Assembly: GCA_942493245.1 (NCBI GenBank)
Contig: OW818685.1
Location: 4,194,973 to 4,258,972, forward strand
From: an uncultured Candidatus Sumerlaeota bacterium
GTDB lineage: Bacteria; Sumerlaeota; Sumerlaeia; UBA8349
Reading direction: 5' to 3'
DNA: 64,000 nt
Positions 9,436 to 35,660 of this stretch are shown here, piece after piece. Every line of letters starts with the position of its first letter. Within the stretch, counting starts at the first letter, position 1. Under the pieces are notes generated by a model that saw only the letters and a list, made by a program, of their open reading frames with translations, ran no database searches and was not told the origin of the DNA. Position numbers and translations under genes: made by a program.

Positions 9436-9518
9436 CGTATGGGAGGGTGGGCGTCCCGCCGGCCTGAAAGAAAAACGGGACGAAGGCGTTCGACTCCGGT
9501 TTTTAAACGTCACCTCCC
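9436..9518 (+). repeat. Family R1 element, copy 2
   Basis: tatgggagggtgggcgtcccgccggcctgaaagaaaaacgggacgaaggcgttcgactccggttttt aligns with the copy at 1466-1550. Confidence 0.55.
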
Positions 9519-12634: not shown

Positions 12635-14446
12635 TCAGAAGGGTTTGAAGATAATGTTTTTCTCCTGCAGGACGGCTTTCATCTTGTCCACTTGATCGTC
12701 GAGCGGGTGGGCGGTGTCCAGGCGCAGGTCGCAGGGGAGGTCGGACGGAACCTCGTCGCCCATCCACACCACCACCATCCGCCCTTCGCCCACCGTGGTC
12801 TCGATCAGGTCCAGTTCCGCCCGCTTCAGGTTCACCGCCGTCACGACCAGCAGCACCCCCGCGTCCAGGAGCAGGTGGGCCACCTCGGCCAGGCGGCGCA
12901 GGTGCTCCGTGCCGTCGCCCGCCTGCCCGGCCACCTTGATGTCGGCGTCCACGCCGTAGAGCACGTTGCCGATCCCGAGGAAGTACACCACCTTCCCTTC
13001 CTCGAAGAGGCGACTCTCGAGGGCCTTGGCAAACGTCTTTTTCCCGGTGTCCCGGTTTCCTGTCACCAGAATCAGCGTCGGGCGCTGGTTGTATTTCTCC
13101 GCGCGCCGCTCGCGCGGAATCCGGCTGGTCTCCCACTTCATGTTGCGCAGCAGCACGTGGCTGCGCAACGCTTCGTACTCGTCCTCGAGCGCCTCGCGCA
13201 GAATGCCCCCGCCCCGGATCTCGAAACGGTCCACGATCACGAAACGGCTCGTGCGGGCGTTGTCCTCGGCCGGATCGAACGCCACGGCGCGCCGCGTCCG
13301 CAGGATGCACTCGGCCACCGCGTGCCGCTCGACCCGGTCGGATTCCGGGGACACGCTCAGGTCCGACGCGTCAATGACCCGGAGGATCTTTTCGACCCAC
13401 ACGGGCGTGCGCGCGCCGCCCATCTTGAGCAGGTACTCGCGCCCCACCCGCAACGGCTCGCGCCCCATCCAGAAGAGGCTGGCGCGCACCCGCGTGGCCA
13501 CCCTGGGCGGCGGTTCCGAGGCCCGGCAGGCCAGTTCGCCCCGGGTCACGTAAATCTGTTCGTCGAGCGTCAGCGCCGTGGCCTCGCCCGCGCTGGTCCG
13601 CGTCTGGGGCGGCTTGTTGAACGCTTCGATCGTGGCCACGCGGCTCCGTTTGCCCGAGGGGAAGAACACCAGTTCGTCGCCCACATCCAGTGTCCCCGAA
13701 TCCACGGTCCCGGCCACGAGCCGGCGCTTGTCGCCCGACCCGGTGAATTTGTACACGTCCTGCACGGGCAGACGAAACGGCTGGTCGAGCGCCTGCGGTT
13801 CCTTTTCAAAACGGTCGAGCGCCTCGAGCACAGTCGGGCCGGTGTACCACGACATCCGTTCCCCCGCCTGCGCGATGTTGTCCCCGAATCGCCCGCTGGC
13901 CGGCACGATGAAGCGCGCCTCGACGCCGATCTCGCGCAGGAACGCCGTGTAGTTTTCGACGATGGCGGAAAAGACCGGCTCGCTGTAATCCACCAGGTCC
14001 ATCTTGTTGACCACGACGGCCAGCTGTCGCACTCCCAGGAGGGCGAGCATGTAGCCGTGACGGCGCGAGTTCTCGCGCACGCCCTCTTCCGCGTCGATGA
14101 CCAGGAGCGCCGCCTCGGCCCGCGACGCGCCCGTGATCATGTTCTTGAGAAACTCGATGTGGCCCGGCGCGTCGAGGATCAGGTAATCGCGCTGGGCGGT
14201 CTTGAAGAACACCCGCGCGGCGTCGATCGTGATCCCCTGGGACATCTCGTCCTTGAGCGCGTCGAGGAGGAACGCGTACTCGAACGGCTTCGAGTTGCGT
14301 TCGCACAGCGCGCGCACCTGGTCGAGCTTGCCCACGGGCAACGACCCCGTGTCGGCCAGCAGGCGGCCCATGACGGTGCTTTTGCCGTGGTCCACATGAC
14401 CGGCAATGACGATGCTCATCTGTTCGCGTTGGGCCGTGTTGTCCAT
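12635..14446 (-). CDS. cysNC: Sulfate adenylyltransferase subunit 1 (CysN GTPase) fused to an APS-kinase-like C-terminal domain (CysNC)
   Basis: GHVDHGKST / DAPGH / NKMD GTPase motifs. C-terminal domain with a P-loop-like GNRDTGKKT. See the finding on degeneracy. Confidence 0.8.
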
Positions 14447-14505
14447 TCGGATTGTCTCTCGCAGACCTCAGTTTTCGATTTCATCCCATTTCGGGGACAG
14501 ATTTT

Positions 14506-15435
14506 TCACATATACCCGTCGCGCCGCAGGGTTTCGAGCCCGCCCCCGTCCTCGGCGTCCTGGGCGCGCCCGGCGCGCTCGGCAATGTTCGAGAACCGCC
14601 CGGTCCGCAGTTCCTCGATGATCTCCCTCGGACTCGTCGCTTTCGATTCGACCGGGTTGGTGCAGGGGTGACATCCCAGTGAACGAAAACGCTTCCCCGT
14701 CCCCTGGTCGTAATAGAGGGACACCGTCGGGATCTTCTCGCGCTCGATGTACTCCCAGATGTTCAGCTCCGTCCAGTCGAGCAGCGGGTGGATGCGCACG
14801 TGCGTCCCCGGCGCGAAGTCCGTCTTGTACTGGTTCCAGAACTCCGGCGGCTGGTCCCCCACGTCCCACTCGTTGTCCCGGTCGCGCGGCGAAAAAACCC
14901 GCTCCTTCGACCGCGACCCTTCCTCGTCCGACCGCACCCCCACGATCACCCCCGTGAACGGCTCGGTGTTCGCGTCCACCTCATAGCGCCCCACCGAGAG
15001 GTTGAACCGGTAACGCGGCCACAGCCCGCTGAGCGTGTGCTTGAGCGCCTCGGTCTTGAGCGCCTTGCAACAGGCCAGGCGGTCCACCGCCCCGTCGGGG
15101 AACGTCTGGCGCTCGCGCAGGGCCGACTCGTTCTGGCCATAGATCATCGTCAGCCCCCACTCGGCCGTCATCCGGTCGCGGTAGGCTATCATCTCCGGAA
15201 TCTTGTACGCCGTGTCAATATGCACGAGCGGAAACGGCACATGCCCCAGAAACGCCTTGCGCGCCAGCCAGAGGAGGACCGTGCTGTCCTTGCCGATGGA
15301 CCAGAGCATGCACAGGCTCTTGAAATTCGCATACGCCTCGCGCAGAATGTGAACGCTGCCGTTTTCCAAATGGTCCAAATGATCCATGCGTCTGTCGCTC
15401 CAGTGTTTTCGTACCGCCGACATCCCAGCCGACAC
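14506..15435 (-). CDS. cysD: Sulfate adenylyltransferase subunit 2 (CysD, PAPS-reductase fold)
   Basis: ...[19 protein letters not shown]...[13 protein letters not shown]...LGCHPCT... Immediately upstream of cysN on the same strand. Confidence 0.85.
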
Positions 15436-15840
15436 CTGTGGTTTGCGGTCTTTACCCCACAGGACAAGCAGACAGGGTAGAGAAAATGTCCTGAAAAGTC
15501 AAGGGTTCCCCAAAATAGATATTTCTCCCTGATCTTCATGTTTCTGTCGCCCCTCCTGGGCTTCATCTTATTTTACGGCCTATTTCGTGGGCTGCTTTCG
15601 GTCACCCACGGCTGGCTTGCAGCCTGCGCAGCAACTCACCGTCGCTCCCTCCGGGGGCTGAAAACAGGAAAATACTCTCTCGATCTTTCGAGCCTTCAGA
15701 CCCAAGATGAAGAATCAAGGCCAGAGCGACCGAAGTCCGAAAAGGTTGGCAAGCGCCCGCTTGCCTCTGGTATGGTGAGAGTCACCCGTGGCGAACCCCT
15801 TCGCCGTGAGTCATCTGAATTGAACAAAAAGCGTCCCGAA

Positions 15841-17685
15841 ATGTCCGAAACCCAGCTCTCCCCCCTTCCCCCCGTTCCTTCTCGACCCAGTGTGGGACCT
15901 ACGTCCTCGCCGGTCCGGTCTTCCCGCGCCCGGAAGCGTTACCGCGCGGCGTTACAGTGGGGAAGCGGTTTGGCGGCGGTCGCGCTTCTGGCGCTGACGC
16001 TGATTTGCGTCCACCTGCGGCCCAACGACCAACCCGTCCGGATCGTCAGTACCGACTATTGGGAAAACGCCCGGCTTGTGGGCCTGCTGATTTTCTCACT
16101 GGACAGCGGCGACGGTCTGGTCTTCAAAAAAGACAATGTGTTGCAGAAAACCCCCTACGTCATCGGTCTGGCCTGGGCCGGCCACCTTCTGGGGTGGAAC
16201 GCCCACCAGGTGTTCCTGACGATGGGCACGCTCAATGTGTTGCTTCTGGGGGTGGCGCTGGTGCGGTTCGGGCGGCGGTGGACCCACCGCCGGGTTCCGT
16301 GGGGGTTTCTGATCGTTGTCCCGTTGCTTTTTTGGGGAAAAGGCTTTTTTCAGAGTAATGAATATCACCTGGCCACCCTGCCCATGACAGCGGCCTACCC
16401 CTCGACGTTCTCGTTCGCCCTGTCGCTTTTGTCGCTCAGCCTGCTGGCGGATGTTTGTCGTCTGGGCCGGGACCGCACGGGCCGCGCGATCGCGTGGGTG
16501 GCCGCTGCCGCGCTGCTGGCCGCCGTGGCCCTGAGTCACCTGTTGACCTTTCTCTGCTTCTTCGTGCCCACAGCGGGTTTGACCGGTCTTTTTCTGGCGC
16601 GGTCGAAGCGGGCCTGGGGTCTGAGCCTCCTGGTCTTTCCCGCCATCGCCGTTTGTCTTCTTTTCTGGCCCTGGCCCGAGATCGCCTGCAAACCGCTCCT
16701 GACCTATCTGAATATGGAAAAGACCGGAACGCCGGAAAAACAGAACGCCGCGCCTGAACTCGCCGCTGAAGAGAAAAAGAGCGACTCGGAAGCCTCCCGG
16801 GAGGAGAAAGTTTCGTTCGACCCGGACGTGTATGAGAAGCACTACAAGATCAACAAGATGCTGAACCGCGCCCCCGCGATCTGCTGGGGATTCGGCCTGT
16901 TGGCCGTCCTGTGCGTTTTCCGCCGCAAGCGGCGCGAGGTGTGGGGTCTGGCCGCTGCCGCGCTCCTGTTTCTGCTCGCCTGGGCCGTTACGGGGTACCT
17001 GTCCAAGATCGTGATGGGACACCCGATCACGATGGGTTACCGCTTTCTCTACTTTTGCGGATTGTTTCTCCAACTGGCCGCCGTGCGCTGTGTGTGGGAT
17101 TTTTCTGCAGGCCCGCGCCGGTGGTGGCTTGTCAGTGCGATGGCGCTTCTGTTTGTGCTGATCCCCGGACGCGACTGCCTGAAAGAAAGCCAGGAACGTT
17201 ACTTTGGCTCCTGGCCCCCCGTTTTCATTCCCTCCGCCCAACTGGACGAAATCCGCGCCTTGACCGGCCGCCAGACCGTTCTGGCCGGAAACGACGTCTC
17301 GTATTATCTCCCCGCTTTCAACATCAAGAGCGGTTGGGTCGGGCGCATGCAGCGCAGCGACGTAAACCCGCTGAACCCAATTGTCCGAACTTGGCTCAAT
17401 AATCAGACCGACGAGAACCTCGCCCGGGTCGCGCAACTCGAGAAGATTGACGCCCACTGGCTCCTGTTTGACAAGACGCTGGATGGTGACGCTGCCCCGC
17501 CACGCGCCACCAAACCCGATTCCAACGTTGTGGTCCTGCGCCTGCCCGCCGAGTCTCCCCTGCTCCAGAGAGTTTTCGAGAACGAGCGGTACATCCTGTT
17601 CCACATCCAGAGGGAGGCCCCCGCGTCTTCCCTCTCCCCGACTCCGGCTCCCGAAGCGGGCGGTGCAACGGGGGGGGCGTCGTGA
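15841..17685 (+). CDS. Large polytopic membrane protein (roughly 12 TM). Possibly a glycosyltransferase or polymerase of the GT39/83/O-antigen-polymerase type. Function unknown.
   Basis: ORF 15538..17685. The first about 100 codons overlap a repeat hairpin and are probably not coding. Candidate starts are MV at 15772 and MSETQ at 15841. Basic N-tail, then many TM helices, then a soluble C-terminal domain. Confidence 0.5.
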   Translation: MSETQLSPLPPVPSRPSVGPTSSPVRSSRARKRYRAALQWGSGLAAVALLALTLICVHLRPNDQPVRIVSTDYWENARLVGLLIFSLDSGDGLVFKKDNVLQKTPYVIGLAWAGHLLGWNAHQVFLTMGTLNVLLLGVALVRFGRRWTHRRVPWGFLIVVPLLFWGKGFFQSNEYHLATLPMTAAYPSTFSFALSLLSLSLLADVCRLGRDRTGRAIAWVAAAALLAAVALSHLLTFLCFFVPTAGLTGLFLARSKRAWGLSLLVFPAIAVCLLFWPWPEIACKPLLTYLNMEKTGTPEKQNAAPELAAEEKKSDSEASREEKVSFDPDVYEKHYKINKMLNRAPAICWGFGLLAVLCVFRRKRREVWGLAAAALLFLLAWAVTGYLSKIVMGHPITMGYRFLYFCGLFLQLAAVRCVWDFSAGPRRWWLVSAMALLFVLIPGRDCLKESQERYFGSWPPVFIPSAQLDEIRALTGRQTVLAGNDVSYYLPAFNIKSGWVGRMQRSDVNPLNPIVRTWLNNQTDENLARVAQLEKIDAHWLLFDKTLDGDAAPPRATKPDSNVVVLRLPAESPLLQRVFENERYILFHIQREAPASSLSPTPAPEAGGATGGAS

Positions 17686-17754
17686 CGCCTTGAAATTCAT
17701 CGTTGCCTGGCACGGAGGCCCGCTCCCATTTTCCATGCGTCGAGAATGCTCTTT

Positions 17755-17845
17755 TCAACCGCAGTTGAACGCCTATCGTCCGGTTTTTCTTTCAGGCGGG
17801 CGGGACGCCCGCCCTCCCAGAAAGGCCATTTTTATGGGGCCAGGT
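17755..17845 (-). repeat. Family R1 element, copy 3 (reverse orientation)
   Basis: The reverse complement reads ctgggagggcgggcgtcccgcccgcctgaaagaaaaaccggacgataggcgttcaactgcgg. Confidence 0.5.
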
Positions 17846-18437
17846 CAAAACCCTTTTGCTCCATGACGCAAGAACAAAGGATTCGTTTTCCGTCCTCAAC
17901 TGCGGTTTTTAGCAAATCACTGTCGTCCCACGGCGGTCTGATTGGGGTTAGTCAAACCAAAAACCCTCTGCATTTTTGACCCGTTCGATCCTATTTTTCC
18001 GCCCCCCCTTTTGCGGATTTTCGGGGAGCGCATTCCCATTCCTTTGTCTGGCAGGGCGCCTGCTATCCCACAGAAGGGGAGCAAACCGCTCACCAACACG
18101 CCATCCCAGCGCACGAGCGCAACAACAGAAGAGCCATTTGAACTGGACCGAGCCTGGTGAGATTGGCCAGAGCGTTCGGGATCGTCCTGCGCCAGACGTA
18201 TGTGCGTTTGGGCAAGCGGACGCTGGGCCAGCAGTCAGGTTAAGCCCACGCCCACCCGGATTCTGCGGAGACATGTTCGGTAAAAATGTTTGGCAATTTG
18301 TGTCCCTGCCGATTAAGATCGGTAGGATTTTTACCCACATACGGGTAAGGAATTGTCTCGCAAGGACTGAGCCATTGACCGCAAGTGATCCCAAACACAA
18401 AACGACCTTTCTGGATATCCAACCGGCGAAAAGGTGG

Positions 18438-19388
18438 ATGTCGTTGAACCTGAGGGAAATGTGGCTCTCGCGCGATCTGTTTCTGATCCTCGTTCTGCGT
18501 GACATCCAACTCAAATACCGTCAGACGTTGCTTGGCTTCGCGTGGGCCTTGCTGGTACCGCTGATCAACATGTTGGTGCTCGGCACGATTTTCGGGCGGA
18601 TGGCCAAAGTTCATACTGACGGGTTGGATCCCTATGTCTTCTATCTGGCCGCCTTGGTTCCCTGGCAATACTTCGCCAGTTCCCTCAACACATCGAGCAA
18701 CTCCCTGGTGGGCAACGAGAGTTTCCTGACGAAGATCTACCTGCCCCGTCTGTTCATTCCCACTTCGTCCTGTGTGGCCAATCTGGTGGATTTCCTTCTC
18801 GCTTTCGGGCTGCTCCTGATTCTCATGTACGTGAAACACGTGCCGGTGGCGGCGACCATCGTGTTGATTCCGGCGGTGATGGTTCTGGCGTTTCTAACCG
18901 CCTCGGGAGTGGGGATGATCCTCTCGGCGGTCAACGTCAAGTACCGCGATGTGCGGTTTGTGGTCCCGTTTCTGATCCAGATCTGGATGTACGTGACGAT
19001 TCTGATCCCGTTCAGCATGGTGCCGACTCAAATTCAGGGGCGCGATCTGGGAGGGTGGCGTTACGCCTACGCGCTGAATCCGATGGTGGCGGTGGTCGAA
19101 GGAACCCGCTGGTGCCTGATGCACCCGATCATGACCGGATCCCATACCGAACGCATCCTGCTGGAGGACCGGACGGTTCCCGAGACCCTGACGAAGAATC
19201 AGAGTATCGAGGTGGAAAAGCCCCAGGACGGGGGGAGTGTGCGGGTGTATCGGCTGGATGTCAAGTCCGACAGTCTCGAGCCGCCGTGGATCGTGATGCT
19301 GGTGGGTTCCTGTTCCGGGCTGATGTTGTTTGTGGGTGGGTTGTATTACTTCAAGCGGTTGGAGAAGATGTTCGCCGACATTGTGTGA
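18438..19388 (+). CDS. wzm: ABC-2 type polysaccharide/O-antigen export permease (Wzm/KpsM/TagG family)
   Basis: N-terminus ...REMWLSRDLFLILVLRDIQLKYRQTLLGFAWALLVPL... is the Wzm signature. RBS aaggtgg before ATG 18438. An alternative start at 18273 is possible. Confidence 0.75.
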   Translation: MSLNLREMWLSRDLFLILVLRDIQLKYRQTLLGFAWALLVPLINMLVLGTIFGRMAKVHTDGLDPYVFYLAALVPWQYFASSLNTSSNSLVGNESFLTKIYLPRLFIPTSSCVANLVDFLLAFGLLLILMYVKHVPVAATIVLIPAVMVLAFLTASGVGMILSAVNVKYRDVRFVVPFLIQIWMYVTILIPFSMVPTQIQGRDLGGWRYAYALNPMVAVVEGTRWCLMHPIMTGSHTERILLEDRTVPETLTKNQSIEVEKPQDGGSVRVYRLDVKSDSLEPPWIVMLVGSCSGLMLFVGGLYYFKRLEKMFADIV

Positions 19389-19404
19389 GATGGGCCGAGG
19401 GGTC

Positions 19405-20772
19405 ATGAGTTCCAACGAAATCGCCATCCAGATCGAGAATATCGGCAAGCGTTACCAACTGGGCAACGTGGTGGATCTGTCGCGGACTCTGCGCGAGTTG
19501 ATCATGGATTTGCCGCGTCAGATCGGCAATTGCACCGGTCTGCGTCGCCCGGACGAGGCTGAGAACGAGCCGATCCGCCCCGGCCAGCTGTCCAGCCAGA
19601 ATGTGGATGAGTCGCAGATCGAAGGGCGTTCGCTGACCGGTTCGCCGATGTTCTGGGCGTTGCGCGATATCAGCTTCAACGTCCATCAGGGCGACGTGGT
19701 GGGAGTAATCGGACGCAACGGCGCCGGCAAATCCACTCTTCTCAAAATTCTGTCCCGCATCACAACCCCCACGACGGGGCGGGTGCGGCTCTGGGGCCGG
19801 GTGGGCGCCCTGCTCGAGGTGGGCACCGGTTTCAGCCCCGAACTGACCGGGCGAGAGAACATTTACCTGAACGGTACCATCCTGGGGATGCGTAAAGCCG
19901 AGGTTCAGAGCAAATTCGACGAGATTGTCGCCTTCTCGGGAACCGAAGAGTTCCTCGAAACGCCGGTCAAGCGCTATTCCAGCGGGATGCGCGTGCGGTT
20001 AGCCTTCGCGGTGGCGGCCTACCTGGAGCCGGAGATTCTGATCATTGATGAAGTGTTGGCCGTGGGCGACAGCCAGTTCCAGAAAAAATGCATGGGGAAA
20101 CTCGACGAAGCGGCCAAGGCGGGGCGCACGATCTTTTTTGTGAGCCACAACATGGCCGCCGTATCGGGGTTGTGCAACCGTTGCGCCTATCTCAAGCATG
20201 GCCAGTTGGTTGAATACGGCCCGACGGACTCCGTGATCCAGCGCTACCTGGCCGATTTCGACGCCGGGGAGCGTATCTCGCTGGCCGTGCGGACCGATCG
20301 CAGCGGCAACGGCAGCGGCCGCCTGACCGACATCCGGTTTCTCGACGCCCGCACCCGCCAGCCGCTCGACGCGCTTATCAGTGGCCAGGATCTGTTGATT
20401 CAGGTTTCCTACGAAACGCGCAAGGCCACGTTGACGCAACTCGACTCGCTTCAGGTGGATCTGGCGTTCTATACGAATCTGGGACAGTTCGTGATGGCGC
20501 TCAACAGCGAGCAGGCCCAGCGCGCTTTCGAGGGACCGCTCGAACGCGACGGAACGGTCTATTGCCGGATTCCGCGTTTCCCGCTGATGGGCGGCCCGTA
20601 TCGCATCACGGCCACCCTGCTGATCAATGGCGCGTTGGCCGACAACCTCGACGATGTGGCGATGTGCAACGTCGAAGCGGGGGACTATTACGGCACCGGG
20701 TTTTCCAGCGCCGACACCCGCCAGGGGTTTTATGTGGACCATTCCTGGCACACCGATCCCGCGCAGGACTGA
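19405..20772 (+). CDS. wzt: ABC transporter ATP-binding protein Wzt/KpsT-like with a C-terminal carbohydrate-binding domain
   Basis: Walker A GRNGAGKSTLLK, signature YSSGMRVRLAFA, Walker B ILIIDEVLAVGD. An extra about 200-aa C-terminal domain is typical of O-antigen Wzt. Confidence 0.8.
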   Translation: MSSNEIAIQIENIGKRYQLGNVVDLSRTLRELIMDLPRQIGNCTGLRRPDEAENEPIRPGQLSSQNVDESQIEGRSLTGSPMFWALRDISFNVHQGDVVGVIGRNGAGKSTLLKILSRITTPTTGRVRLWGRVGALLEVGTGFSPELTGRENIYLNGTILGMRKAEVQSKFDEIVAFSGTEEFLETPVKRYSSGMRVRLAFAVAAYLEPEILIIDEVLAVGDSQFQKKCMGKLDEAAKAGRTIFFVSHNMAAVSGLCNRCAYLKHGQLVEYGPTDSVIQRYLADFDAGERISLAVRTDRSGNGSGRLTDIRFLDARTRQPLDALISGQDLLIQVSYETRKATLTQLDSLQVDLAFYTNLGQFVMALNSEQAQRAFEGPLERDGTVYCRIPRFPLMGGPYRITATLLINGALADNLDDVAMCNVEAGDYYGTGFSSADTRQGFYVDHSWHTDPAQD

Positions 20773-21166
20773 AACCTGGGGATTCCGGATGGGAAGACCT
20801 TTTTTCGGGGATGAGTGAGTTGTTTCTTCCGAGGCGTTGATCTCTGCGCAAAGGAGAAGGAGGCGTCTCGAAACATCGGACGGTTCTGCCCGAGAGCCGA
20901 CAGAGGAGAACCTGGCGCTTGGGAAATGGGAACTTTGGGATTGCATTTATGCAAGAGGGAATGCAGACTAGGATCGTCCGAAGTGGGACCTAGGGGAACG
21001 CCGCCGGGGCGGCGGGTTCTTCTCTTCCCAGCCGTTTCTTTCTGTCCAACTGAAGTTGGGGGAGCATTATACGTTCCAGGCGGCAGAATCTCTGGAGGAG
21101 GTCAGAGCGTCTTCAGTTGCGCTTGCGAATAGGAAACATGCACACCGACAATGACGGAACGACACC

Positions 21167-22072
21167 ATGAATTCTGCTAGCGCGGGTTTGAGAAATCTCG
21201 TCGGACAGATTGCGCGAACCGTTTATTGTGCGCTTCCTTTTCGAGGGATCGAGCGTCCCGTCTTTATCATTGGGTGCGGTCGGTCCGGGACCACGATTCT
21301 GGGCGCAACCCTGGCGAAGCATCGGCTGGTCACCTACCTGAATGAACCGTGTCATCTGTGGTTTTCCGCCTATCCGCAGACGGACATCTGGACGCCGAAG
21401 GCTCAGTCCCGCGGGGGAAAACTGGCTCTCACGGCCGCGGACACAGAAGCGGGAAAAAGCCGGAAAATCGGTCGGCTTTTCCGCCTGGAAACTTGGATAA
21501 GCGGAAAGCCCGTTCTGATCGAAAAATTGCCGGTCAACAGCTTCCGTCTGAATTTCATCCAGGAGATTTTCCCCGAGGCGCGTTTCATCCATATCTACCG
21601 GAATGGTCTGGAAGTGGCCCGGTCCATCGAGGAAATCAGCAAGAAGGGCCGGTGGTTTGGGACGAATTCCTATAAATGGGACCGGCTGACTGAATACGCC
21701 TCGGGCCGGGAAGACACAAGGGATCTCCCTGCGCTCTGTTCTTCCTTCTATGAAAAAGGCTTACTCGAATGGCGGTTGAGCGCGGAGGCGGCCGTCGAGT
21801 TCTTGAACCGTCTTCCGGACGGCGCTTTTTTCGAACTGAACTACGACGAGCTGGTCGAAGAACCGCTCAAAACCCTCTCACAAGTCCTGGAATTCGTTGG
21901 CCTGGAGGATGACCCTGAAGTGAAACGTTTTGTCTCCGAGAACCTGGCTCGCAAAACAGGCAAGTTGGGGCGCTGCGAGGTTTCCGAAAAAGAGCGAATA
22001 CTGGGAGGGAAACTCCTGCCGCTGTCCATGAATGGGGTCGGGAGGTTGACAAGGCGCTGCGCCCTGTCTTGA
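21167..22072 (+). CDS. Sulfotransferase family protein
   Basis: 5'-PSB-like P-loop VFIIGCGRSGTTILG. About 300 aa. Sits in a cluster with a second sulfotransferase. Confidence 0.6.
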   Translation: MNSASAGLRNLVGQIARTVYCALPFRGIERPVFIIGCGRSGTTILGATLAKHRLVTYLNEPCHLWFSAYPQTDIWTPKAQSRGGKLALTAADTEAGKSRKIGRLFRLETWISGKPVLIEKLPVNSFRLNFIQEIFPEARFIHIYRNGLEVARSIEEISKKGRWFGTNSYKWDRLTEYASGREDTRDLPALCSSFYEKGLLEWRLSAEAAVEFLNRLPDGAFFELNYDELVEEPLKTLSQVLEFVGLEDDPEVKRFVSENLARKTGKLGRCEVSEKERILGGKLLPLSMNGVGRLTRRCALS

Positions 22073-22145
22073 TTTTGTGGCGCTTCATGCAGGTCTCCGA
22101 CCGGTTCCACAAGTTCACACCACGCAAGAAAAGCGAGAAACGGGT

Positions 22146-22997
22146 ATGCAGGACGATTTGACACGCATTTGCGACGCGCAACGGGAGTTGTACGCCCGGC
22201 GCTGGGACGAAACCTCGTGGGACGGGCAGCCGCTCTATCCCATCCAGTTGCCACTCGAGGAAATCCTGCGCGGTTCGCCCATTCCGCTGCACCGACCCTA
22301 CCCGGCCACCCATCTCAACGCGGTGGGTACGCCGCGTTGCGGCACCAAGTGGCTGCAGCGGATTCTGACCCTGTTGACGGTTCCGCAACGCGAGCCGTCT
22401 TTTCTGGAAAAGGTGTGCAAGCCGATTTTCGACCGTCGGCGGCGGATCGCCCACTTTCACGAAGGCATCCTCGAAGACTACAAACCGTCCCAGAAGATCG
22501 TGTTCATCTACCGCGACGTGCGCGACGCCGTGGTGTCGGGGTATGTGTATATCAAGACGGGCCAGCACCCGGGGATGATGAACTGCACCACCGAACTGCA
22601 CCAGGCCCGCAGTCAGGAAGAGGGGCTGCGCGCACAACTGGTGATGTATATGAAATACCGGATGCCGGTTCTGAACTACTGGTACCGGCTCGACGCGCCC
22701 AATGTGGTGAAAGTGCGCTATGAAGATCTGCTGCGGAATCTCGACGGCGAGATCCGGCGGATCAACCGGGAGGCGCAGCTGGGAGCCGACGAGGAAACTT
22801 TAAGCCGCACGATCGCCCAGTCGTCGTTCCGGAGCATGACCGGCGGGCGCACCCAGGGGCAGGAGGACCGCCAGTCGCACCAGCGCAAAGGGGTTCAGGG
22901 CGACTGGCGTAACTGGTTCAACGACGACCTCCGGCAGACCTTCCGCCAGATGGGCGGCGAGGCCTTCCTGCGCGATCTTGGATACGAGGTTGAATGA
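22146..22997 (+). CDS. Sulfotransferase family protein
   Basis: TPRCGTKWL (PKSGTTW-like 5'-PSB motif) and RKGVQGDWRNWF (the RKG..GDW.N.F 3'-PB motif). ORF from 22077. MQDDL at 22146 is the likely start. Confidence 0.75.
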   Translation: MQDDLTRICDAQRELYARRWDETSWDGQPLYPIQLPLEEILRGSPIPLHRPYPATHLNAVGTPRCGTKWLQRILTLLTVPQREPSFLEKVCKPIFDRRRRIAHFHEGILEDYKPSQKIVFIYRDVRDAVVSGYVYIKTGQHPGMMNCTTELHQARSQEEGLRAQLVMYMKYRMPVLNYWYRLDAPNVVKVRYEDLLRNLDGEIRRINREAQLGADEETLSRTIAQSSFRSMTGGRTQGQEDRQSHQRKGVQGDWRNWFNDDLRQTFRQMGGEAFLRDLGYEVE

Positions 22998-23920
22998 GCA
23001 TGAACTTCTGGCAAAAAGTTAAAAACGCGATCCCGCAGACGGCGCCGGTGCGCCTGGTGGACCGGCTGTTCGAACGCTATCCCCTTTACATGCGCTACCG
23101 CCACCGGGGACTGAAGTTTGAAACCACCTCGATTGTGCTGATCACGCTCGATTCTCTGCGCTACGATACCGCCCAGTTGGCCCGCACCCCCAACTTCGAC
23201 CGCCTGTTCGCCGAATATGGGTCGCAGGGGTGGGTGCTCACCGGGGCGCATGGGACCTACACCCTGCCCGCCCACGTTTCGATGCTCCACGCCGGGATTA
23301 TGGCGTGCGACAACCGGCCCGAGGTGCCCGCGCCGTTCAATCGCGACAAGGGGCGGATTTTCAAGGCCCAGCTGGCCTGGGAACGCACGACCGGCGCCAT
23401 GTTTCCCACGCCTGCCGCCCCCAACATCGTCAAGGGGTTCGAAGCGCTGAATTACCGCACTATCGGCGTGGGCGGGGTGCATTGGTTCGACACCCGATTT
23501 GTCACGTCGCGGTTCTGGAAGGACGATTATTTTCAGGAATTCTACTGGAACGATACGTTCTGCGAGAAAGATCCCCGTTCGTTCGAAAACCAGATCGCCG
23601 CCATCCGCACTCTCGGTCTGCGCACCTGCGGCAAACCGATTTTTCTGTTTCTCAATGTGTCTAGCACCCACACCCCCTACATGGGTTTCGAGCCGACGGT
23701 GGCGGGTCAGGCGAAGGCGCTCGAATACGTGGATTCGCACTTGCCCGAGTTGCTCGAACTGCTGCCCGACCGGTGCGATCTGATGATTCTGGCCGACCAC
23801 GGCGAATGCTTCGGCGAAGAGGGCCTCTGGGGTCACAGTTTCTACCACCCCCGGGTGATGGAAGTGCCGTTTGCCTACATCAAGGGGTTCAAAGATCCCG
23901 ACCGCACGAAGCAGGCGTGA
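22994..23920 (+). CDS. Alkaline-phosphatase-superfamily protein (sulfatase / phosphotransferase-like)
   Basis: ATGA overlap. ...TSIVLITLDSLRYD... and ...LMILADHGE... resemble the metal-binding regions of the sulfatase family. Confidence 0.45.
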   Translation: MSMNFWQKVKNAIPQTAPVRLVDRLFERYPLYMRYRHRGLKFETTSIVLITLDSLRYDTAQLARTPNFDRLFAEYGSQGWVLTGAHGTYTLPAHVSMLHAGIMACDNRPEVPAPFNRDKGRIFKAQLAWERTTGAMFPTPAAPNIVKGFEALNYRTIGVGGVHWFDTRFVTSRFWKDDYFQEFYWNDTFCEKDPRSFENQIAAIRTLGLRTCGKPIFLFLNVSSTHTPYMGFEPTVAGQAKALEYVDSHLPELLELLPDRCDLMILADHGECFGEEGLWGHSFYHPRVMEVPFAYIKGFKDPDRTKQA

Positions 23921-23930
23921 GGAGGCTTCG

Positions 23931-25046
23931 ATGCTCGATTCGTCCAGCGCCGGGAGTTCGATGAATCCCTCGCCTTCCCCTGCCGTTTCGGTGTTGCTGC
24001 CGGTTTACAACGCCGCATCGTACGTCGGCCTGTCCATCGAGAGCATTCTGACGCAGACCTTGGGTGACTTTGAATTGATCCTGATGGACGACGGCTCGAC
24101 CGACGATTCGTTCTCGGCGCTCGAGGACTGGGCGCGGCGCGACGCGCGGATCGTGCTGGTCCGCAACGAGCGCAACCTCGGGTTGATCCGGACCCTGAAC
24201 CGGGGGTTGGGGCTGGCCCGGGGCGAATTCATCGCCCGTCAGGACGCCGACGATTGTTCCGAACCGCAGCGCCTGGAACGCCAGGTGGCTTTTCTGCGGG
24301 CGCATGCGGAGGTCGGCCTGCTGGGCGCCGCGTACCACGCGGTGGATGCGCGGGGGCGTCGCCTCTATACCTTCTGTCCCCCACAGTCCGATACCGCCAT
24401 CCGCTGGATGGCGCTCTTTCAGAACCCCTTCTGCCACACCTCGGTTCTGTTTCGCCGGGCGTTGGCCGCCGGACGCGAGGCGTCGTTCTACGACGAGCGG
24501 GCGCTCCATGCCGAAGATTACGAACTCTGGGTCCGGCTGCTCGAACAGACCCGCGGGGCCAACCTGGCCGAGCCGCTGGTGCGCTGGCGCAAGCACAGCG
24601 AGAGCGTCAGTGTCCTCCACGAAGCGACACAGACCACCTTCGCCACCGAGCTGGCCCGCCGCCAGATGCTGGCGTTGCTGCCCGGTTTGGCGATTTCGCC
24701 CGAGGAGACGGCTCGCTTGCGCGCCTGGCACAACAGTCTGCCTCTGACGATGACCCGCGCCGATCTGGCGCTGTGCGCCCGTTATTTCGACCTGCTCGAC
24801 GCGCTGGCCGCCCGCCCGGACAGCGATCCCGCCGAAATCGCCCGGATTCGCACCGAACCGCCGATCCGGATTCTGCGGTTCCTGAGCGCCCGCACGAGCG
24901 CCCACCGGTTTTGGGCTTGCAGTTTGCTCCCCGCATGGGCATGTTATCGTTTTTGCCGTTCGCTGGGGCGCCAACCGTGGCTGGCGCTGGCTGCGGCAAA
25001 ACAATTTTTGGAAAGCCGATTGGCCCAGACTGGCGCCGGAACATGA
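23931..25046 (+). CDS. Glycosyltransferase family 2
   Basis: RBS ggagg. VSVLLPVYNAASYVGLSIESILTQTLGDFELILMDDGSTDDS is a GT2 Rossmann region with the DxD. Start MLDSS at 23931 lies inside ORF 23871..25046. Confidence 0.8.
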   Translation: MLDSSSAGSSMNPSPSPAVSVLLPVYNAASYVGLSIESILTQTLGDFELILMDDGSTDDSFSALEDWARRDARIVLVRNERNLGLIRTLNRGLGLARGEFIARQDADDCSEPQRLERQVAFLRAHAEVGLLGAAYHAVDARGRRLYTFCPPQSDTAIRWMALFQNPFCHTSVLFRRALAAGREASFYDERALHAEDYELWVRLLEQTRGANLAEPLVRWRKHSESVSVLHEATQTTFATELARRQMLALLPGLAISPEETARLRAWHNSLPLTMTRADLALCARYFDLLDALAARPDSDPAEIARIRTEPPIRILRFLSARTSAHRFWACSLLPAWACYRFCRSLGRQPWLALAAAKQFLESRLAQTGAGT

Positions 25047-26098
25047 TCCACTCCCCCTCCCTTCCCCCCCTGGACTCTGACCCGGCGATCAGCGTGGTGA
25101 TCTGCACCTTCAACCGCGCCCCCCTGCTCGAGGACGCCGTCGTGTCGCTCTACGAGCAGACGTGCGATCCAGCGCTCTTCGAGGTGCTGGTGGTGGACAA
25201 CAATTCCACCGACGACACGGCCGAGCGGTGCGAACGGCTGATGAGCCGATACCCGAGCCTGCGGACGGTCAAGGAAACCCGCACCGGCTTGTCGCACGCC
25301 CGCAACCGGGGACTCGAGGAAGCGCGCGGACGCTACATCGGCTACCTCGACGACGACGCCAAGGTGCCGCCCCACTGGATCGAGCAGGCCGAGAAGATCA
25401 TTCGGGAACTCGCGCCGCTGGCCTTTGGCGGGCCTTATGTGCCCTATTACAACTCGCCCAAACCGTTCTGGTACAAGGACGCGTACGGCTCGCGCGAGCC
25501 GGCGGAATCCTCCCGCTGGCTGAAAGAAAACGAAAGCCTCACGGGCAACAATATGTTCTTTCGCCGCGACGTACTCGAGGAACTGGGCGGTTTCGACCCC
25601 CGGCTCGGCATGACCGGCTACCAGGTCGAGTACGGCGAAGAGACCGCGGTGCAGCGCTGCATTTTCTACCGCTGGCCCGACCGGGCCGACCGGGCCATTT
25701 ACAACGACCAGGAACTGTTCATCTACCACCTGGCGCCGGCGCGCAAGCTGAGCCTGCGCTGGCGCATCGTCGAGCAATACCAGGTGGGACGCTCATATCC
25801 CCGGATGCAGGCGTCGGTGGGCCAGTTTCTGCCCCAGACGCCCGAGGTGGATGCCGCTCCAGCCGCCCCCGCCGGGTCTCTTCTGAGCCGTGTGCTCGTT
25901 CCGACATTCCGGCTCCTCCGGCTCCACGCGGGCAATTTCGTCAAGGGCTTTCTCATCCGCGACCGCGAGCGGTATCCCTACTGGCAAAACTATTTCTACG
26001 AGAGCGGCTCGATCGTCTTTTTCTTCATGGGGTGCGTCCACGAATATCTGAGTCTGTTCGCGCAGAAACTGCGCCGCCGCCCCCAGACCGATGCCTGA
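25043..26098 (+). CDS. Glycosyltransferase family 2
   Basis: ATGA overlap. ISVVICTFNRAPLLEDAVVSLYEQTCDPALFEVLVVDNNSTDDT. Confidence 0.8.
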   Translation: MIHSPSLPPLDSDPAISVVICTFNRAPLLEDAVVSLYEQTCDPALFEVLVVDNNSTDDTAERCERLMSRYPSLRTVKETRTGLSHARNRGLEEARGRYIGYLDDDAKVPPHWIEQAEKIIRELAPLAFGGPYVPYYNSPKPFWYKDAYGSREPAESSRWLKENESLTGNNMFFRRDVLEELGGFDPRLGMTGYQVEYGEETAVQRCIFYRWPDRADRAIYNDQELFIYHLAPARKLSLRWRIVEQYQVGRSYPRMQASVGQFLPQTPEVDAAPAAPAGSLLSRVLVPTFRLLRLHAGNFVKGFLIRDRERYPYWQNYFYESGSIVFFFMGCVHEYLSLFAQKLRRRPQTDA

Positions 26099-26122
26099 GA
26101 CCCCGGAGGTTCCGTTTCGTTC

Positions 26123-27130
26123 ATGACAACCATTTCCATTATCGTCCCCGCCTACAACGCCCGGAAGGGAATCGCCAAGTGCCTCGACGCTCTGCTCCGG
26201 CAGACGGGCCTCGAACATGCGCCCGAAATTATTGTGGTGGATGACGGCTCGACCGACGAGACGCCCGATATTGTCGGGCGCTATCCGGGTGTCCGCCTCA
26301 TCCGCCAGAAAAACGCCGGGGCCGGACCCGCCCGTAACACCGGCATCCAGGCCTCGACCGGCGATTTTCTGCTCTTCACCGATTCGGACTGCGAACCCGA
26401 TCCCACCTGGGCCGCCGAAATCCTCAAGGGGTTCACCTCCGACGACATCGCGATGGTGATGGGTTCGACCCGGACCGACCTGGGGGAGAACAACATCTAC
26501 GCCCGCACGTTCCAGGGGCGCGACTACATCGCCGTGCGCCCGGGGCCGACCAATCGTTTCAATTCCAACAACCTGGCGCTGCGCCGCTGGGCCGCGCTGG
26601 CCTTCCTTTTCGATCCGGCCCTGCCCATCTACTGCGAGGACAACGACCAGGGGTGGCGCCTGCTCGCCGCCGGCTACCAGACCATCTTTTACCCGTCGGC
26701 CCAGATCGCCCACCACCACCCCTACACGACTCGGTCGTTCTACCGAAACGCCTACCTCGAGGGGCGCGCCTCCGCCCGGCTGCACTACAAGCACGGCCTC
26801 TGGATTCCGCGCGACAAGGCCGCGTTCCTCGCCGCGCTCGGCGCGTTGTTGCTCGCTCCGGTCTGGTCCGGGTTTCTCTGGCTCGCCCTGTTATTCTTCC
26901 TGCTGTTTCTGGCCTCGCTGCTCTTCAACGAACTCTATTTCAAGCACAAACCGCTCGGGCTGGCCCTGACGATCTATCCCGTTCAGTTCTCCTGGTATCT
27001 GGTGCGGATCTACGGGTACCTTCTGATGATGGGGCGCATCCTGCTCGGACTGGAACCGGCCATCCGCGCCTCGAAACGAGCCTGGTACGCCGAGCGCCAA
27101 CGCCTCCACGAGGCGAAACGCGGCGCTTGA
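26123..27130 (+). CDS. Glycosyltransferase family 2 with a C-terminal membrane anchor
   Basis: ISIIVPAYNARKGIAKCLDALLRQT...IIVVDDGSTDET... plus C-terminal TM helices. Confidence 0.8.
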   Translation: MTTISIIVPAYNARKGIAKCLDALLRQTGLEHAPEIIVVDDGSTDETPDIVGRYPGVRLIRQKNAGAGPARNTGIQASTGDFLLFTDSDCEPDPTWAAEILKGFTSDDIAMVMGSTRTDLGENNIYARTFQGRDYIAVRPGPTNRFNSNNLALRRWAALAFLFDPALPIYCEDNDQGWRLLAAGYQTIFYPSAQIAHHHPYTTRSFYRNAYLEGRASARLHYKHGLWIPRDKAAFLAALGALLLAPVWSGFLWLALLFFLLFLASLLFNELYFKHKPLGLALTIYPVQFSWYLVRIYGYLLMMGRILLGLEPAIRASKRAWYAERQRLHEAKRGA

Positions 27131-27404: not shown

Positions 27405-27714
27405 ATGTTCATCATCCATGTCTTCGTCCATGTGAAACCCGACTGCGTGGAGACCTTCCGCGCCGCCACACTCGACAATGCGCGCAACAGTGTGCTGGAA
27501 CCGGGAATAGCCCGGTTCGATGTGGTCCAGCAACTCGACGATCCCACGCGGTTCTGTCTGGTCGAGGTGTACCGCACGCCCGAGGACCAGCTGCGCCACC
27601 GCGAGACGGCGCATTACGCCACCTGGCGCGACACGGTGGCCGAGCTTGATGGCGGAACCGCGAACCGCCGTAAAATACTCCGATGTTTTTCCGGACGACA
27701 AAGGATGGGACTGA
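27405..27714 (+). pseudogene. Antibiotic-biosynthesis-monooxygenase (ABM) domain protein. An apparent +1 frameshift fuses it in frame to the downstream ADH.
   Basis: Frame 0 gives [28 protein letters not shown]...[11 protein letters not shown]. The conserved ABM C-terminus ...[22 protein letters not shown] is readable only in the +1 frame (27640-27714). Confidence 0.55.
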
Positions 27715-35334: not shown

Positions 35335-35575
35335 TCGAAAGGCATGAGACACTTGTGGCGCAGCAGAGCCGTAACTAAAACCCATTTAACGCAAAGACGC
35401 AGAGCCGCAAGGACGCAGAGGTCGTTGGGTGGGGGGGACGGCAAGGTCTCTATCATGAATTGAAAACAGGGACAGAATATGTGGACAATGGAAACTGAAA
35501 ATCTTGAATCTTTGCGTCTCTGCACCTTTGCGACTTTGCGTTAAAATTGGTTGCGATTTTGCTGCGTCAGGTTCT
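35335..35575. repeat. MITE-like element family R2, copy 2 (both terminal inverted arms intact)
   Basis: Left arm tggcgcagcagagccgtaactaaaacccatttaacgcaaagacgcagag. Right arm ctctgcacctttgcgactttgcgttaaaattggttgcgattttgctgcgtcagg. Confidence 0.6.
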
Positions 35576-35660
35576 TTCGTTCCTTTCGTGGTCGAATAAA
35601 GCGTTTTACTCGCGATCCTTCGATCGTGGCGCGTTTCAAACCGTCCCCCAGGAGGCTTTC

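Follow-up and report, generated by a model that had tools for sequence, protein, structure and literature searches.

Genes for sulfate activation, polysaccharide export, sulfation and glycosyl transfer lie side by side at positions 12635-27130 of the window, which is the whole 64-kb stretch of DNA that was analysed, and the question arises whether they form one sulfated-glycan island, as an earlier note on this DNA had proposed. Searches with curated profiles (Pfam, NCBIfam), from which all gene identities were taken, recovered every gene listed in that note, with corrections for the tail of CysN, a membrane protein and a supposed sulfatase (Table 1). What had been taken for an island is a juxtaposition, its last six genes being carried as a block at another locus by a sister MAG. 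It is on balance probable that the region consists of four separately inherited units, the fourth of which probably makes an exported sulfated glycan. The first unit would serve sulfur assimilation and comprises an SsuA-type sulfonate ABC importer together with cysD and cysN. The second is a lineage-specific polytopic membrane protein, the third a Wzm/Wzt ABC-2 exporter whose ATPase has a carbohydrate-binding domain, and the fourth a self-contained operon, ST1-ST2-APh-GT2a-GT2b-GT2c, preceded by an upstream region of its own.

Table 1. Features of the region, in coordinates of the window
Feature	Position	Strand	Basis
cysN, ATP sulfurylase GTPase subunit, with degenerate APS-kinase-like tail (residues ~431-603)	12635..14446	-	GTP_EFTU and partial APS_kinase match
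cysD, ATP sulfurylase small subunit	14506..15435	-	NF003587, Pfam PAPS_reduct
Lineage-restricted polytopic membrane protein, ~613 aa, possibly GT-C-like	15841..17685	+	close homologues, no family match
Non-coding gap, about 750 bp, at the place of the relatives' GT4 gene	17686..18437	.	tblastn
wzm, ABC-2 type polysaccharide exporter permease	about 18438..19388	+	PF01061 ABC2_membrane, 56.7 bits
wzt, exporter ATPase with C-terminal carbohydrate-binding domain	19405..20772	+	ABC_tran 83 bits, Wzt_C
Operon upstream region, probable promoter or leader, shared with sister MAG	20925..21166	+	DNA homology to L001 from 20925
ST1, Sulfotransfer_3-type PAPS-dependent sulfotransferase	21167..22072	+	PF13469, 96.5 bits
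ST2, cytosolic-SULT-like sulfotransferase (Sulfotransfer_1)	22146..22997	+	PF00685, 83.7 bits
APh, cytoplasmic minimal alkaline-phosphatase-superfamily enzyme, coupled to ST2	22994..23920	+	Pfam Phosphodiest, Sulfatase, Metalloenzyme
GT2a glycosyltransferase	23931..25046	+	PF00535, 103 bits
GT2b glycosyltransferase, 4-bp overlap with GT2a	25043..26098	+	PF00535, 105 bits
GT2c glycosyltransferase, hydrophobic C-terminal region (about residues 235-310)	26123..27130	+	PF00535, 117 bits

Both sulfurylase subunits pass the cut-offs of their models (CysD, NF003587, 350.7 bits against 195, besides the PAPS_reduct match; CysN, TIGR02034, 337.6 bits against 336.1), while the bifunctional CysNC model is failed with 442 against 715. 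Comparison of the CysN tail with solved and neighbouring APS kinases revealed GKK in place of GKS/T, with loss of the Walker-A Ser/Thr, GIGNVL in place of DGDNVR, with loss of the DGD motif, VNL in place of ISP, and a lid shortened by a 28-residue deletion. By these residues the domain is a degenerate pseudo-kinase, predicted to be catalytically dead and not a credible APS kinase, so that the sulfur-assimilation unit would make APS and not PAPS. As a search of the 64-kb window for a second APS kinase yielded none, PAPS synthesis appears not to be encoded here, and of the APS/PAPS synthesis once ascribed to CysD and CysN(C) the PAPS step has to be withdrawn.

The cysDN pair adjoins an SsuA-family sulfonate importer, the binding protein of which passes its profile cut-off, and linkage of cysD/cysN to sulfotransferases was found at 0 of about 165 related sulfotransferase or APh loci, where stand-alone APS kinases, unlike cysD/cysN, do occur with sulfotransferases. 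Owing to the degenerate tail, this neighbour and the lack of linkage, cysDN look like ordinary housekeeping genes, and the logic of rhizobial nodPQ-nodH seen in them by the earlier note does not apply. The nod system (with nodIJ and nodC) does resemble the window, as both place CysD/CysN-type genes close to an ABC-2 exporter, a GT2 enzyme and a sulfotransferase that uses PAPS, but the APS kinase domain of NodQ is active and all its motifs are missing from the CysN tail, NodA and NodB have no counterpart in the window, and the linkage of cysDN is not kept in relatives. A dedicated nodPQ-like PAPS supply, with the whole 14.5 kb as one functional island, is therefore very improbable. It would fit the divergent orientation of cysD and the membrane-protein gene, the sulfotransferases within 6 kb, the stand-alone APS kinases of related sulfotransferase loci and the dedicated second cysNDC copies of a Vibrio sulfated capsule locus; it is contradicted by a kinase-like tail lacking every catalytic motif and the lid, by the CysNC score far below cut-off, by the abutting SsuA-type importer, by the relatives, none of which keeps cysDN next to the operon or the membrane protein, and by the count over the related loci.

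The open reading frame of the membrane protein opens at 15538 (15538-17685), which had led to a length of 715 aa. Since homologues begin at about residue 102 of this frame, the true gene is the shorter one of Table 1; the five close homologues, the only ones found, all start at the equivalent of 15841. The protein is indeed polytopic, but it does not pair with this island: its counterparts in relatives precede a translationally coupled GT4 gene, and none has cysDN next to it. With the relatives' GT4 as tblastn query no match was obtained in the window, and the gap in its place contains a dispersed repeat of 65-75 bp (17757-17832) with further copies at 9440-9501 and 1457-1531. Pfam and NCBIfam profile searches gave no match for the membrane protein, and the structure prediction recommended previously, an AlphaFold model, had a pLDDT of 42 and was unusable. 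In remote homologues of ~500-550 aa, almost none of them in Pfam, the first loop holds a D-x-W that is nearly invariant; the protein is possibly GT-C-like.

The assignment of Wzm/Wzt, including the C-terminal glycan-binding domain of Wzt, was borne out by ABC2_membrane, ABC_tran and Wzt_C matches. Wzm has at least five hydrophobic segments and weakly matches the galactan exporter Wzm/RfbD model; Wzt has a TagH/Wzt-type nucleotide-binding domain and a Wzt_C score of 38.1 bits, above the cut-off of 30.4. The two genes are 1-16 nt apart, depending on an alternative wzt start at 19390. Coupling had also been recognised within the operon, where 4-bp ATGA overlaps occur at ST2/APh and GT2a/GT2b and the genes from ST1 to GT2c overlap or are closely spaced. 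Between wzt and ST1, on the other hand, about 400 bp with a terminator-like hairpin look like a separate promoter region. The part shared with the sister MAG has a block of conserved sequence around 20930-20975, and a GC hairpin lies at 20999-21015.

In the sister MAG (L001) the stretch 20925-27120 is found again as a whole at a different locus. DNA identity is 60-80% over ST1 and rises to 89-98% from ST2 on, and the homology ends at 27120, just inside the GT2c gene. The two ST1 copies are only 76% identical, and ST1 has a lower GC3. The sister block has neither wzm/wzt nor cysDN in the 4 kb upstream or the 4.5 kb downstream of it, and the link of Wzm/Wzt to the operon is thus by adjacency only. 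The neighbourhood could then be due to chance: the sulfated product of the operon would leave the cell otherwise or stay cell-associated, and Wzm/Wzt would export another, unsulfated glycan, e.g. an O-antigen with synthesis genes elsewhere. The exporter-free flanks of the sister operon, the separate upstream region with its hairpin and the left junction, which the step in identity after ST1 marks as a recombination breakpoint, speak for this. It is nevertheless considered unlikely, because the order wzm-wzt-ST1 is also found in a Chloroflexota locus (L045, Aggregatilineaceae) and wzt adjoins ST1-like genes in Phycisphaerales/Phycisphaeraceae and other Planctomycetota loci, because the Wzt carbohydrate-binding domain most similar among the loci compared (41% identity) belongs to a sulfotransferase-rich, APh-containing cluster (L086), and because any other glycan that Wzm/Wzt might export has no synthesis genes in the window.

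The profile search set beforehand as the refuting test placed both ST1 and ST2 in sulfotransferase families, above Pfam thresholds, and the 5'-PSB and 3'-PB motifs reported for them are conserved across their families. For ST1, with 895 homologues, GCGRSGTT (5'-PSB) and RNGxEVAxS (3'-PB) are invariant in 30 sequences; it has a 22-bit partial match to NoeE and no NodH equivalog. The best solved relatives of ST2 are estrogen and cytosolic sulfotransferases, and TPRCGTKW, a histidine, YRDVRDAVVS and RKGVQGDWRNWF are conserved. A hydropathy scan detected no strong hydrophobic segment in ST1, ST2, APh, GT2a and GT2b, which fits cytoplasmic enzymes using cytoplasmic PAPS before export.

APh does belong to the alkaline phosphatase superfamily, with Phosphodiest, Sulfatase and Metalloenzyme matches at or near threshold and a failed NCBIfam STM4013/SEN3800 model (174.5 against 250). 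The sulfatase half of the former label was rejected, as the nucleophile is a threonine (TYTLP) and the C/S-x-P-x-R motif of formylglycine sulfatases is absent. Its family does not vary at D53, H226, D268 and H269, and scarcely at T90. The AlphaFold model (pLDDT 93) had its best Foldseek matches in EptC/EptA/MCR-1, sulfatases and NPP at a TM of about 0.5. A sulfotransferase lies within 5 kb at 18 of the 70 APh loci with enough flank, the majority of APh-family loci having none nearby, and L001, L085, L087 and L089 each have an ST2-type/APh pair.

All three glycosyltransferases match PF00535, as expected from the earlier description. GT2a is EpsE-like (149.7 bits, below cut-off), with homologues after APh at several other loci, and GT2b is EpsD/HpsE-like, also below cut-offs. 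GT2c has one strong hydrophobic segment (250-268), and its sequence suggests a second. An initiating phosphoglycosyltransferase, a ligase, an outer-membrane exporter and a functional APS kinase are all missing from the 64 kb, as are nucleotide-sugar genes. As the locus has only three single-domain GT2 enzymes and lacks a polymerase, a chain terminator and an initiating transferase, the product might be no polymer but a sulfated glycolipid, lipo-oligosaccharide or small-molecule glycoside, nearer to Nod factors (NodC/NodH/NodIJ) or sulfoglycolipids. A membrane-anchored GT2c with weak matches to MftF, NodC, CruG and polyprenyl-phosphate sugar synthases, the likeness of ST2 to small-molecule cytosolic sulfotransferases, the transport of lipo-oligosaccharides by other ABC-2 exporters and weak NodI matches of Wzt point the same way. 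This is quite improbable, however, as Wzt_C is characteristic of exporters of polymeric O-antigens, the neighbouring genes include none for lipid synthesis or of NodA/NodB type, the NCBIfam matches of the glycosyltransferases are all far below cut-offs, and the related loci are of polysaccharide type (epimerases, GT4s, Wzx- or ABC-type exporters).

In the O-antigen pathways of E. coli O9a (WbdD/Wzt) and Klebsiella O12/Raoultella (WbbB/Wzt), the chain is terminated by a cap, to which the carbohydrate-binding domain of Wzt responds. These share with the window Wzm, a Wzt with C-terminal Wzt_C and cytoplasmic enzymes encoded beside the exporter, but neither a kinase/methyltransferase like WbdD nor a Kdo transferase like WbbB is present in the window, leaving only the sulfotransferases and APh as candidate capping enzymes, and its locus has no WecA, WaaL or multidomain polymerising glycosyltransferase.

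The preferred reading, an exported sulfated glycan, is supported by recurrent linkage: relatives of ST1, ST2 and APh recur in unrelated genomes beside Wzm/Wzt, GT2 enzymes and stand-alone APS kinases, which would suit ABC-transporter-dependent synthesis of such a glycan. In L086, wzm and a wzt that includes Wzt_C are joined by APh, by several glycosyltransferases and by four or more sulfotransferases. L085 encodes an ST2-type enzyme coupled to APh, together with epimerases, glycosyltransferases, an APS kinase and a further sulfotransferase, and in L170 ST1 is accompanied by another sulfotransferase, an APS kinase, a GT2 and an ABC exporter. ST1 orthologues are sometimes alone (Methylococcus, L169). 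In the O-antigen cluster of Aeromonas salmonicida, also ABC-2-dependent, a sulfotransferase-domain gene directly follows wzt (PMC4483657); its product has 216 aa and the O-antigen itself yielded no sulfate, whereas the window encodes two full-length sulfotransferases with intact motifs.

The view that PAPS-dependent glycan sulfation is rare in bacteria is outdated. The synechan (xss) cluster of Synechocystis PCC 6803 likewise has two sulfotransferases of different subfamilies among several glycosyltransferases, and ABC-type sulfotransferase-containing clusters are predicted in cyanobacteria (PMC8205485). Unlike the window with its ABC-2 type exporter, xss is Wzx/Wzy/PCP-dependent, plasmid-borne and regulated by XssQRS, and none of the loci closest to the window is cyanobacterial by label. 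Clusters of the type proposed here are already known: the capsule locus of Vibrio sp. KMM 8419, the sulfated product of which is structurally proven, has an ABC transporter, glycosyltransferases, sulfotransferases and cysNDC, with adjacent cysN and cysD as in the window (PMC11641403). Its exporter is Kps-type (KpsMT/DE) and not a Wzm/Wzt with carbohydrate-binding domain; it has a real cysC, second cysND copies and nucleotide-sugar genes in contrast to the dead kinase tail and missing cysC of the window; and of the two loci only that of the window has the APh partner enzyme.

As the most likely mechanism, the three GT2 enzymes would work on the cytoplasmic side of the membrane and assemble a glycan bound to a lipid carrier, and the two cytoplasmic sulfotransferases would sulfate it with PAPS from an APS kinase that must be encoded outside the window. 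APh may catalyse a hydrolysis or transfer of the phosphoryl type, with either the glycan or the by-product nucleotide as its substrate, and Wzm/Wzt would carry the completed chain across the membrane, in the manner of O-antigen or capsule pathways that depend on an ABC transporter. The six-gene operon adjoining Wzm/Wzt thus probably makes a sulfated surface glycan.

As the window has a G+C content of about 61%, reading frames were selected by third-position GC bias together with profile matches. An earlier note had proposed an island for the biosynthesis and export of a sulfated glycan at 12635-27130. Profile searches confirmed its gene list with three corrections, which concern the C-terminal tail of CysN, the membrane protein, and the alkaline-phosphatase-superfamily enzyme (APh). 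The translational coupling it described was found as well, with 4-bp overlaps between ST2 and APh and between GT2a and GT2b, and a spacing of 1-16 nt between wzm and wzt.

Features of the proposed island (window positions; ST, sulfotransferase; GT2, glycosyltransferase)
Feature	Position	Strand	Length	Basis
cysN-like	12635-14446	-	603 aa	profile search
cysD	14506-15435	-		profile search
polytopic membrane ORF	15538-17685	+		ORF; no family match
wzm	~18438-19388			profile search
wzt	19405-20772			Wzt_C domain above threshold
ST1	21167-22072			Sulfotransfer_3
ST2	22146-22997			Sulfotransfer_1
APh	22994-23920			alkaline-phosphatase superfamily
GT2a	23931-25046			GT2 glycosyltransferase
GT2b	25043-26098			GT2 glycosyltransferase
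GT2c	26123-27130			GT2 glycosyltransferase

The flagged stretch is not one island. The order ST1, ST2, APh, GT2a, GT2b, GT2c of the window is found again in a sister MAG (GCA_030154545.1, locus L001), with 92-96% protein identity from ST2 to GT2c, and the DNA homology between the two loci is confined to 20925-27120. The flanks in the sister MAG are different, with R3H, aminotransferase, and HD genes upstream and PMI and phosphomutase genes downstream, none of which was found in the window. In two further loci harbouring relatives of the membrane protein (L083 and L084) neither wzm/wzt nor sulfotransferases nor cysDN are nearby. The island as a whole is thus not conserved across relatives.

Over ST1 and the DNA upstream of it (window 20900-22250 compared to L001 3980-5300) the DNA identity to the sister MAG is 60-80%; from about 22250 onward it rises to 89-98%. 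The GC3 of ST1 is 0.65 as compared to 0.78-0.84 for its neighbours, and the ST1 protein shares 76% identity with the copy of the sister MAG versus 70-72% with unrelated metagenomic copies. From this jump in identity, the lower GC3, and the weak closeness of the proteins, ST1 is predicted to be a mosaic and the left end of the operon a recombination junction, which suggests that the first sulfotransferase may have been replaced in a cassette-like manner. Amid diverged noncoding DNA upstream of ST1 the window and the sister MAG have in common a block of about 45 bp (~20930-20975; GGGAACTTTGGGATTGCATTT...GGATGCAGACTA), after which a GC hairpin lies at 20999-21015. This block is probably a promoter or operator; a sigma-54 promoter was rejected by eye, the GG-N10-GC spacing being absent.

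Several repeats were seen in the two loci. Three dispersed intergenic copies (17757-17832, 9440-9501, and 1457-1531) of a repeat of about 65-75 bp with a GC-rich hairpin (GGCGGGCGGGACGCCCGCCC) show 87-90% identity, and a REP-like palindrome (CGTCATTCCCGCGAAAGCGGGAA) is located at 28959-28987/29054-29082 and 56432-56460 of the window and at 185-222 and 3885-3907 of L001. Between GT2b and GT2c the sister MAG carries about 180 bp of inserted intergenic sequence (L001 9568-9714) with 67% identity to window 15532-15692, the intergenic region of cysD and the membrane protein gene; a fragment of the insertion also matches window 57680-57736, and the insertion may represent a small element, either mobile or repeated. 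Directly 3' of the operon an ABM (antibiotic-biosynthesis-monooxygenase-like) domain is fused to an iron-containing alcohol dehydrogenase (27405-28874), a fusion which is absent from the locus of the sister MAG. No flanking direct or inverted repeats indicative of a mobile island were found, and no integrase or transposase domains among the scanned ORFs of the window. Searches of the window for Rfam families, two long gaps included, and for tRNAs yielded none. The remainder of the window is unrelated housekeeping; a 1284-aa FtsX/MacB-type permease (44504-48358), a multihaem cytochrome (MtrC/c7-like, 50632-51864), and the selenocysteine synthase SelA (35547-37070) have no relation to the island.

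Both genes for sulfate activation gave matches above the cut-offs of their families, CysN to TIGR02034 with 337.6 bits (cut-off 336.1) and CysD to NF003587 with 350.7 bits (cut-off 195). The C-terminal part of CysN, which the earlier note had taken to provide PAPS synthesis, did not stand up to closer comparison. The Pfam APS_kinase match covers only positions 2-107 of the 152 of the model, and the model for bifunctional CysNC (NF004035) scored 442 against a cut-off of 715. The tail was aligned to solved APS kinases and to stand-alone kinases from related sulfotransferase loci (L170 and L085), all of which keep the four motifs of the family. In the tail the Walker A sequence GLSGSGKS/T reads GNRDTGKK, LDGDNVR is replaced by LGIGNVL and the ISP of ISPxR by VNL (VNLKR), and 28 residues spanning the lid KGLYKxAR...FTG are missing. 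The "C" part of this CysN is therefore predicted to be a pseudo-kinase. It is the sole APS-kinase-like sequence in the 64 kb, as tblastn with three APS kinases as queries found no other. The tail of about 170 amino acids (12635-13150) may have a role in regulation or in PAPS binding as a pseudo-kinase. Genes with such tails risk being annotated as bifunctional CysNC, and as a dead kinase domain can go unnoticed under that name, a cysN(C) gene beside sulfotransferases is not proof of PAPS supply.

These findings bear on a nodPQ-like reading, in which cysDN next to the sulfotransferases would follow the logic of nodPQ-nodH. The reading draws on the proximity of the genes in the window; against it stand the degenerate kinase tail and the absence of the linkage in relatives. 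Neither near the six-gene block of the sister MAG nor near the membrane protein homologues was cysDN present, and no cysD match was obtained in the sulfotransferase or APh loci searched. When a sulfate activation gene accompanies related loci it is a stand-alone APS kinase, never cysDN. In the window cysDN is convergent with an ABC importer whose binding protein scores above the cut-off of the SsuA family, so the surroundings look like a sulfur assimilation neighbourhood. That cysDN is dedicated to the glycoconjugate of the operon is very improbable. A system resembling that for Nod factors was rejected, with NodA and NodB missing and weak scores for NodC, NodI, and NoeE.

For the membrane protein, the 715 amino acids given before are too many. 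Since each of its five homologues begins at a position corresponding to residue 102, the true gene would range from about 15841 to 17685 and encode 613 amino acids. In its relatives in L083 and L084 a coupled GT4 glycosyltransferase gene comes next, which is absent from the window, where a noncoding gap of 750 bp takes its place. No match to the protein was found in Pfam or NCBIfam, and none of its profile to the PDB. An AlphaFold model from an alignment of six sequences reached a pLDDT of 42, too low for use. A profile search in 1.84 billion representatives yielded about 149 remote homologues; only two of 38 sampled matched Pfam families, one PTPS_related and one DUF6057. A nearly invariant D-x-W in the first loop is the only hint of a GT-C fold in this family.

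The two sulfotransferases were confirmed. ST1 matches PF13469 with 96.5 bits (cut-off 27) and ST2 PF00685 with 83.7 bits (cut-off 22), and the 5'-PSB and 3'-PB motifs noticed earlier are present and conserved. In ST1 GCGRSGTT and R145...S153 (RNGxEVAxS) are invariant in 30 homologues, as are glutamate 119 and lysine 120; solved relatives are too distant for assigning a catalytic base. ST2 keeps all four canonical motifs of cytosolic sulfotransferases, with TPRCGTKW, YRDVRDAVVS, and RKGVQGDWRNWF conserved in nine sequences, and has a conserved histidine in the segment expected for the catalytic base (AHFHEG). Judged by these motifs, both look intact as predicted enzymes. ST1 belongs to a widespread and well conserved family with 895 matches, of which the 120 best ones listed have 50-77% identity.

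For APh, the earlier designation as sulfatase/alkaline-phosphatase-superfamily enzyme was right as to the superfamily and wrong as to the sulfatase. The core fold, the metal-binding aspartate, the nucleophile, and the DH motif of the superfamily are present, with aspartate 53, histidine 226, aspartate 268, and histidine 269 invariant in 46 homologues and threonine 90 nearly so within T-Y-T-L-P. The nucleophile position reads G-T-Y-T-L-P-A-H; the C/S-x-P-x-R motif of sulfatases is absent in the family, and a formylglycine-dependent sulfatase was rejected on these grounds. The match to PF00884 is at threshold (25.3 bits), and APh, which reached 174.5 bits with the STM4013/SEN3800 model (NF038075; cut-off 250), is a relative rather than a member of that family. 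Its AlphaFold model (pLDDT 93.3) gave 247 Foldseek matches in the PDB at E<=1e-3, headed by EptC/EptA/MCR-1, sulfatases, and NPPs; its resemblance to phosphoethanolamine transferases, to sulfatases, and to NPPs is about the same and in each case distant (TM ~0.5, 11-18% identity). As a hydropathy scan detected no hydrophobic segment, APh is probably cytoplasmic.

Since tblastn with the sulfotransferases of the window was too insensitive for divergent ones, sulfotransferases near APh genes were counted with iterative HMMs seeded with ST1 and with ST2. The two arrived at practically the same set (169 and 172 ORFs, 169 of them shared), which in the window comprised the two real sulfotransferase genes only. 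A sulfotransferase was located within 5 kb in 18 of 70 APh loci and in six of the 15 closest ones, and a GT2a-like gene often follows APh. On the assumption that a genome as a rule has few sulfotransferase genes, the proximity is judged to be far above chance. It is not obligatory.

The exporter consists of an adjacent permease (PF01061) and ATPase (PF00005). TagH and Wzt models scored 181-201 bits on Wzt, below their equivalog cut-offs, and a Wzt_C domain (PF14524) was found at residues 322-457 of the long ORF with 38.1 bits (cut-off 30.4). That exporter and operon are neighbours by chance would fit with the end of the homology to the sister MAG at the left side of the operon; against this rival speaks the recurrence of the linkage elsewhere. 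Locus L045 from Aggregatilineaceae has wzm-wzt-ST1 in the order of the window, and wzt lies beside ST1-like genes in several loci labelled Phycisphaerales, Phycisphaeraceae, or Planctomycetota. Labels of the Planctomycetota lineage on distant matches (Pirellulales and Phycisphaerales/Phycisphaeraceae), together with type II secretion and N-methyl pilin genes in the surroundings of relatives, are no more than a hint of a PVC-type lineage. Locus L086 combines wzm, a wzt with Wzt_C 41% identical in its C-terminal domain to that of the window, APh, at least four sulfotransferases, GT2, GT4, and GT11. L085 contains a coupled pair of ST2-type and APh genes with an APS kinase, glycosyltransferases, and another sulfotransferase, and in L170 ST1 is accompanied by a further sulfotransferase, an APS kinase, GT2, and an ABC exporter. 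The ST1 of a Desulfobulbaceae genome is located in a Wzx-type polysaccharide locus. Compact clusters from other metagenomes in L170 (9001-15464) and L085 (9153-12253), with ST1- or ST2-type genes, GT2, a half-transporter ABC exporter, and a motif-complete stand-alone APS kinase, may be a recurring minimal module for sulfated glycans.

Taken together, the six-gene operon probably makes a sulfated glycoconjugate, and the chances that Wzm/Wzt is its exporter are about even. According to the functions of the families and the order of the genes, the three glycosyltransferases, one of them membrane-anchored, would assemble a glycan on a lipid carrier on the cytoplasmic side of the membrane, and ST1 and ST2 would sulfate it with PAPS, for which the APS kinase would necessarily be encoded elsewhere. 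APh, coupled to ST2, would act on the glycan or on PAP/PAPS by phosphoryl-type transfer or by hydrolysis, and Wzm/Wzt would export the finished product. Domain scans of the 64-kb window detected neither an initiating transferase nor a ligase, no OPX/PCP and no nucleotide-sugar genes, and neither a Wzx flippase nor a Wzy polymerase. A rival is a nonpolymeric product, a sulfated glycolipid or glycoside. The lack of an initiating transferase and of a polymerase sits well with it; the Wzt_C domain and the company of polysaccharide exporters in other genomes speak for a polymer.

Loci for sulfated glycans with ABC transporters are a known kind, of which the operon would be a new member. The closest published case is the sulfated capsule locus of Vibrio sp. 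KMM 8419 (PMC11641403), in which cysNDC and sulfotransferases accompany an ABC transporter and for which the structure of the sulfated product has been solved. The work on synechan (PMC8205485) had already pointed to sulfotransferase genes within polysaccharide clusters of the ABC type; clusters of the synechan type themselves have Wzx, Wzy, and PCP, none of which was detected in the window. In an Aeromonas O-antigen locus an ORF with a sulfotransferase domain adjoins wzt, its role not being known (PMC4483657).

No domains of a chain terminator of the WbdD or WbbB type are encoded in the window, and as candidate capping enzymes the locus offers only the sulfotransferases. One might combine two ideas, that one sulfotransferase adds a chain-stopping cap read by the Wzt domain and that APh is a new partner of bacterial glycan sulfotransferases. 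Sulfate at the nonreducing end would then be the counterpart of the methyl-phosphate and Kdo caps, and APh would, for example, remove PAP or edit a phospho- or sulfo-intermediate. The combination is compatible with the adjacencies of wzt with sulfotransferases and of ST2 with APh recurring across phyla; as a whole it is an unlikely proposal. No published description was found of the ST2/APh gene pair or of sulfate as a cap read by the carbohydrate-binding domain of Wzt, and both should be regarded as leads rather than findings.

Should the product of the operon indeed be a sulfated surface glycan, the operon would add an example of ABC-transporter-dependent glycan sulfation from outside cyanobacteria and vibrios, and would offer two well conserved sulfotransferase families and a compact set of three glycosyltransferases of possible use in the engineering of sulfated polysaccharides. 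The more original leads are the conserved pair of ST2 and an alkaline-phosphatase-type enzyme and the repeated adjacency of wzt and sulfotransferases, by which sulfate as a signal for export or termination becomes testable.
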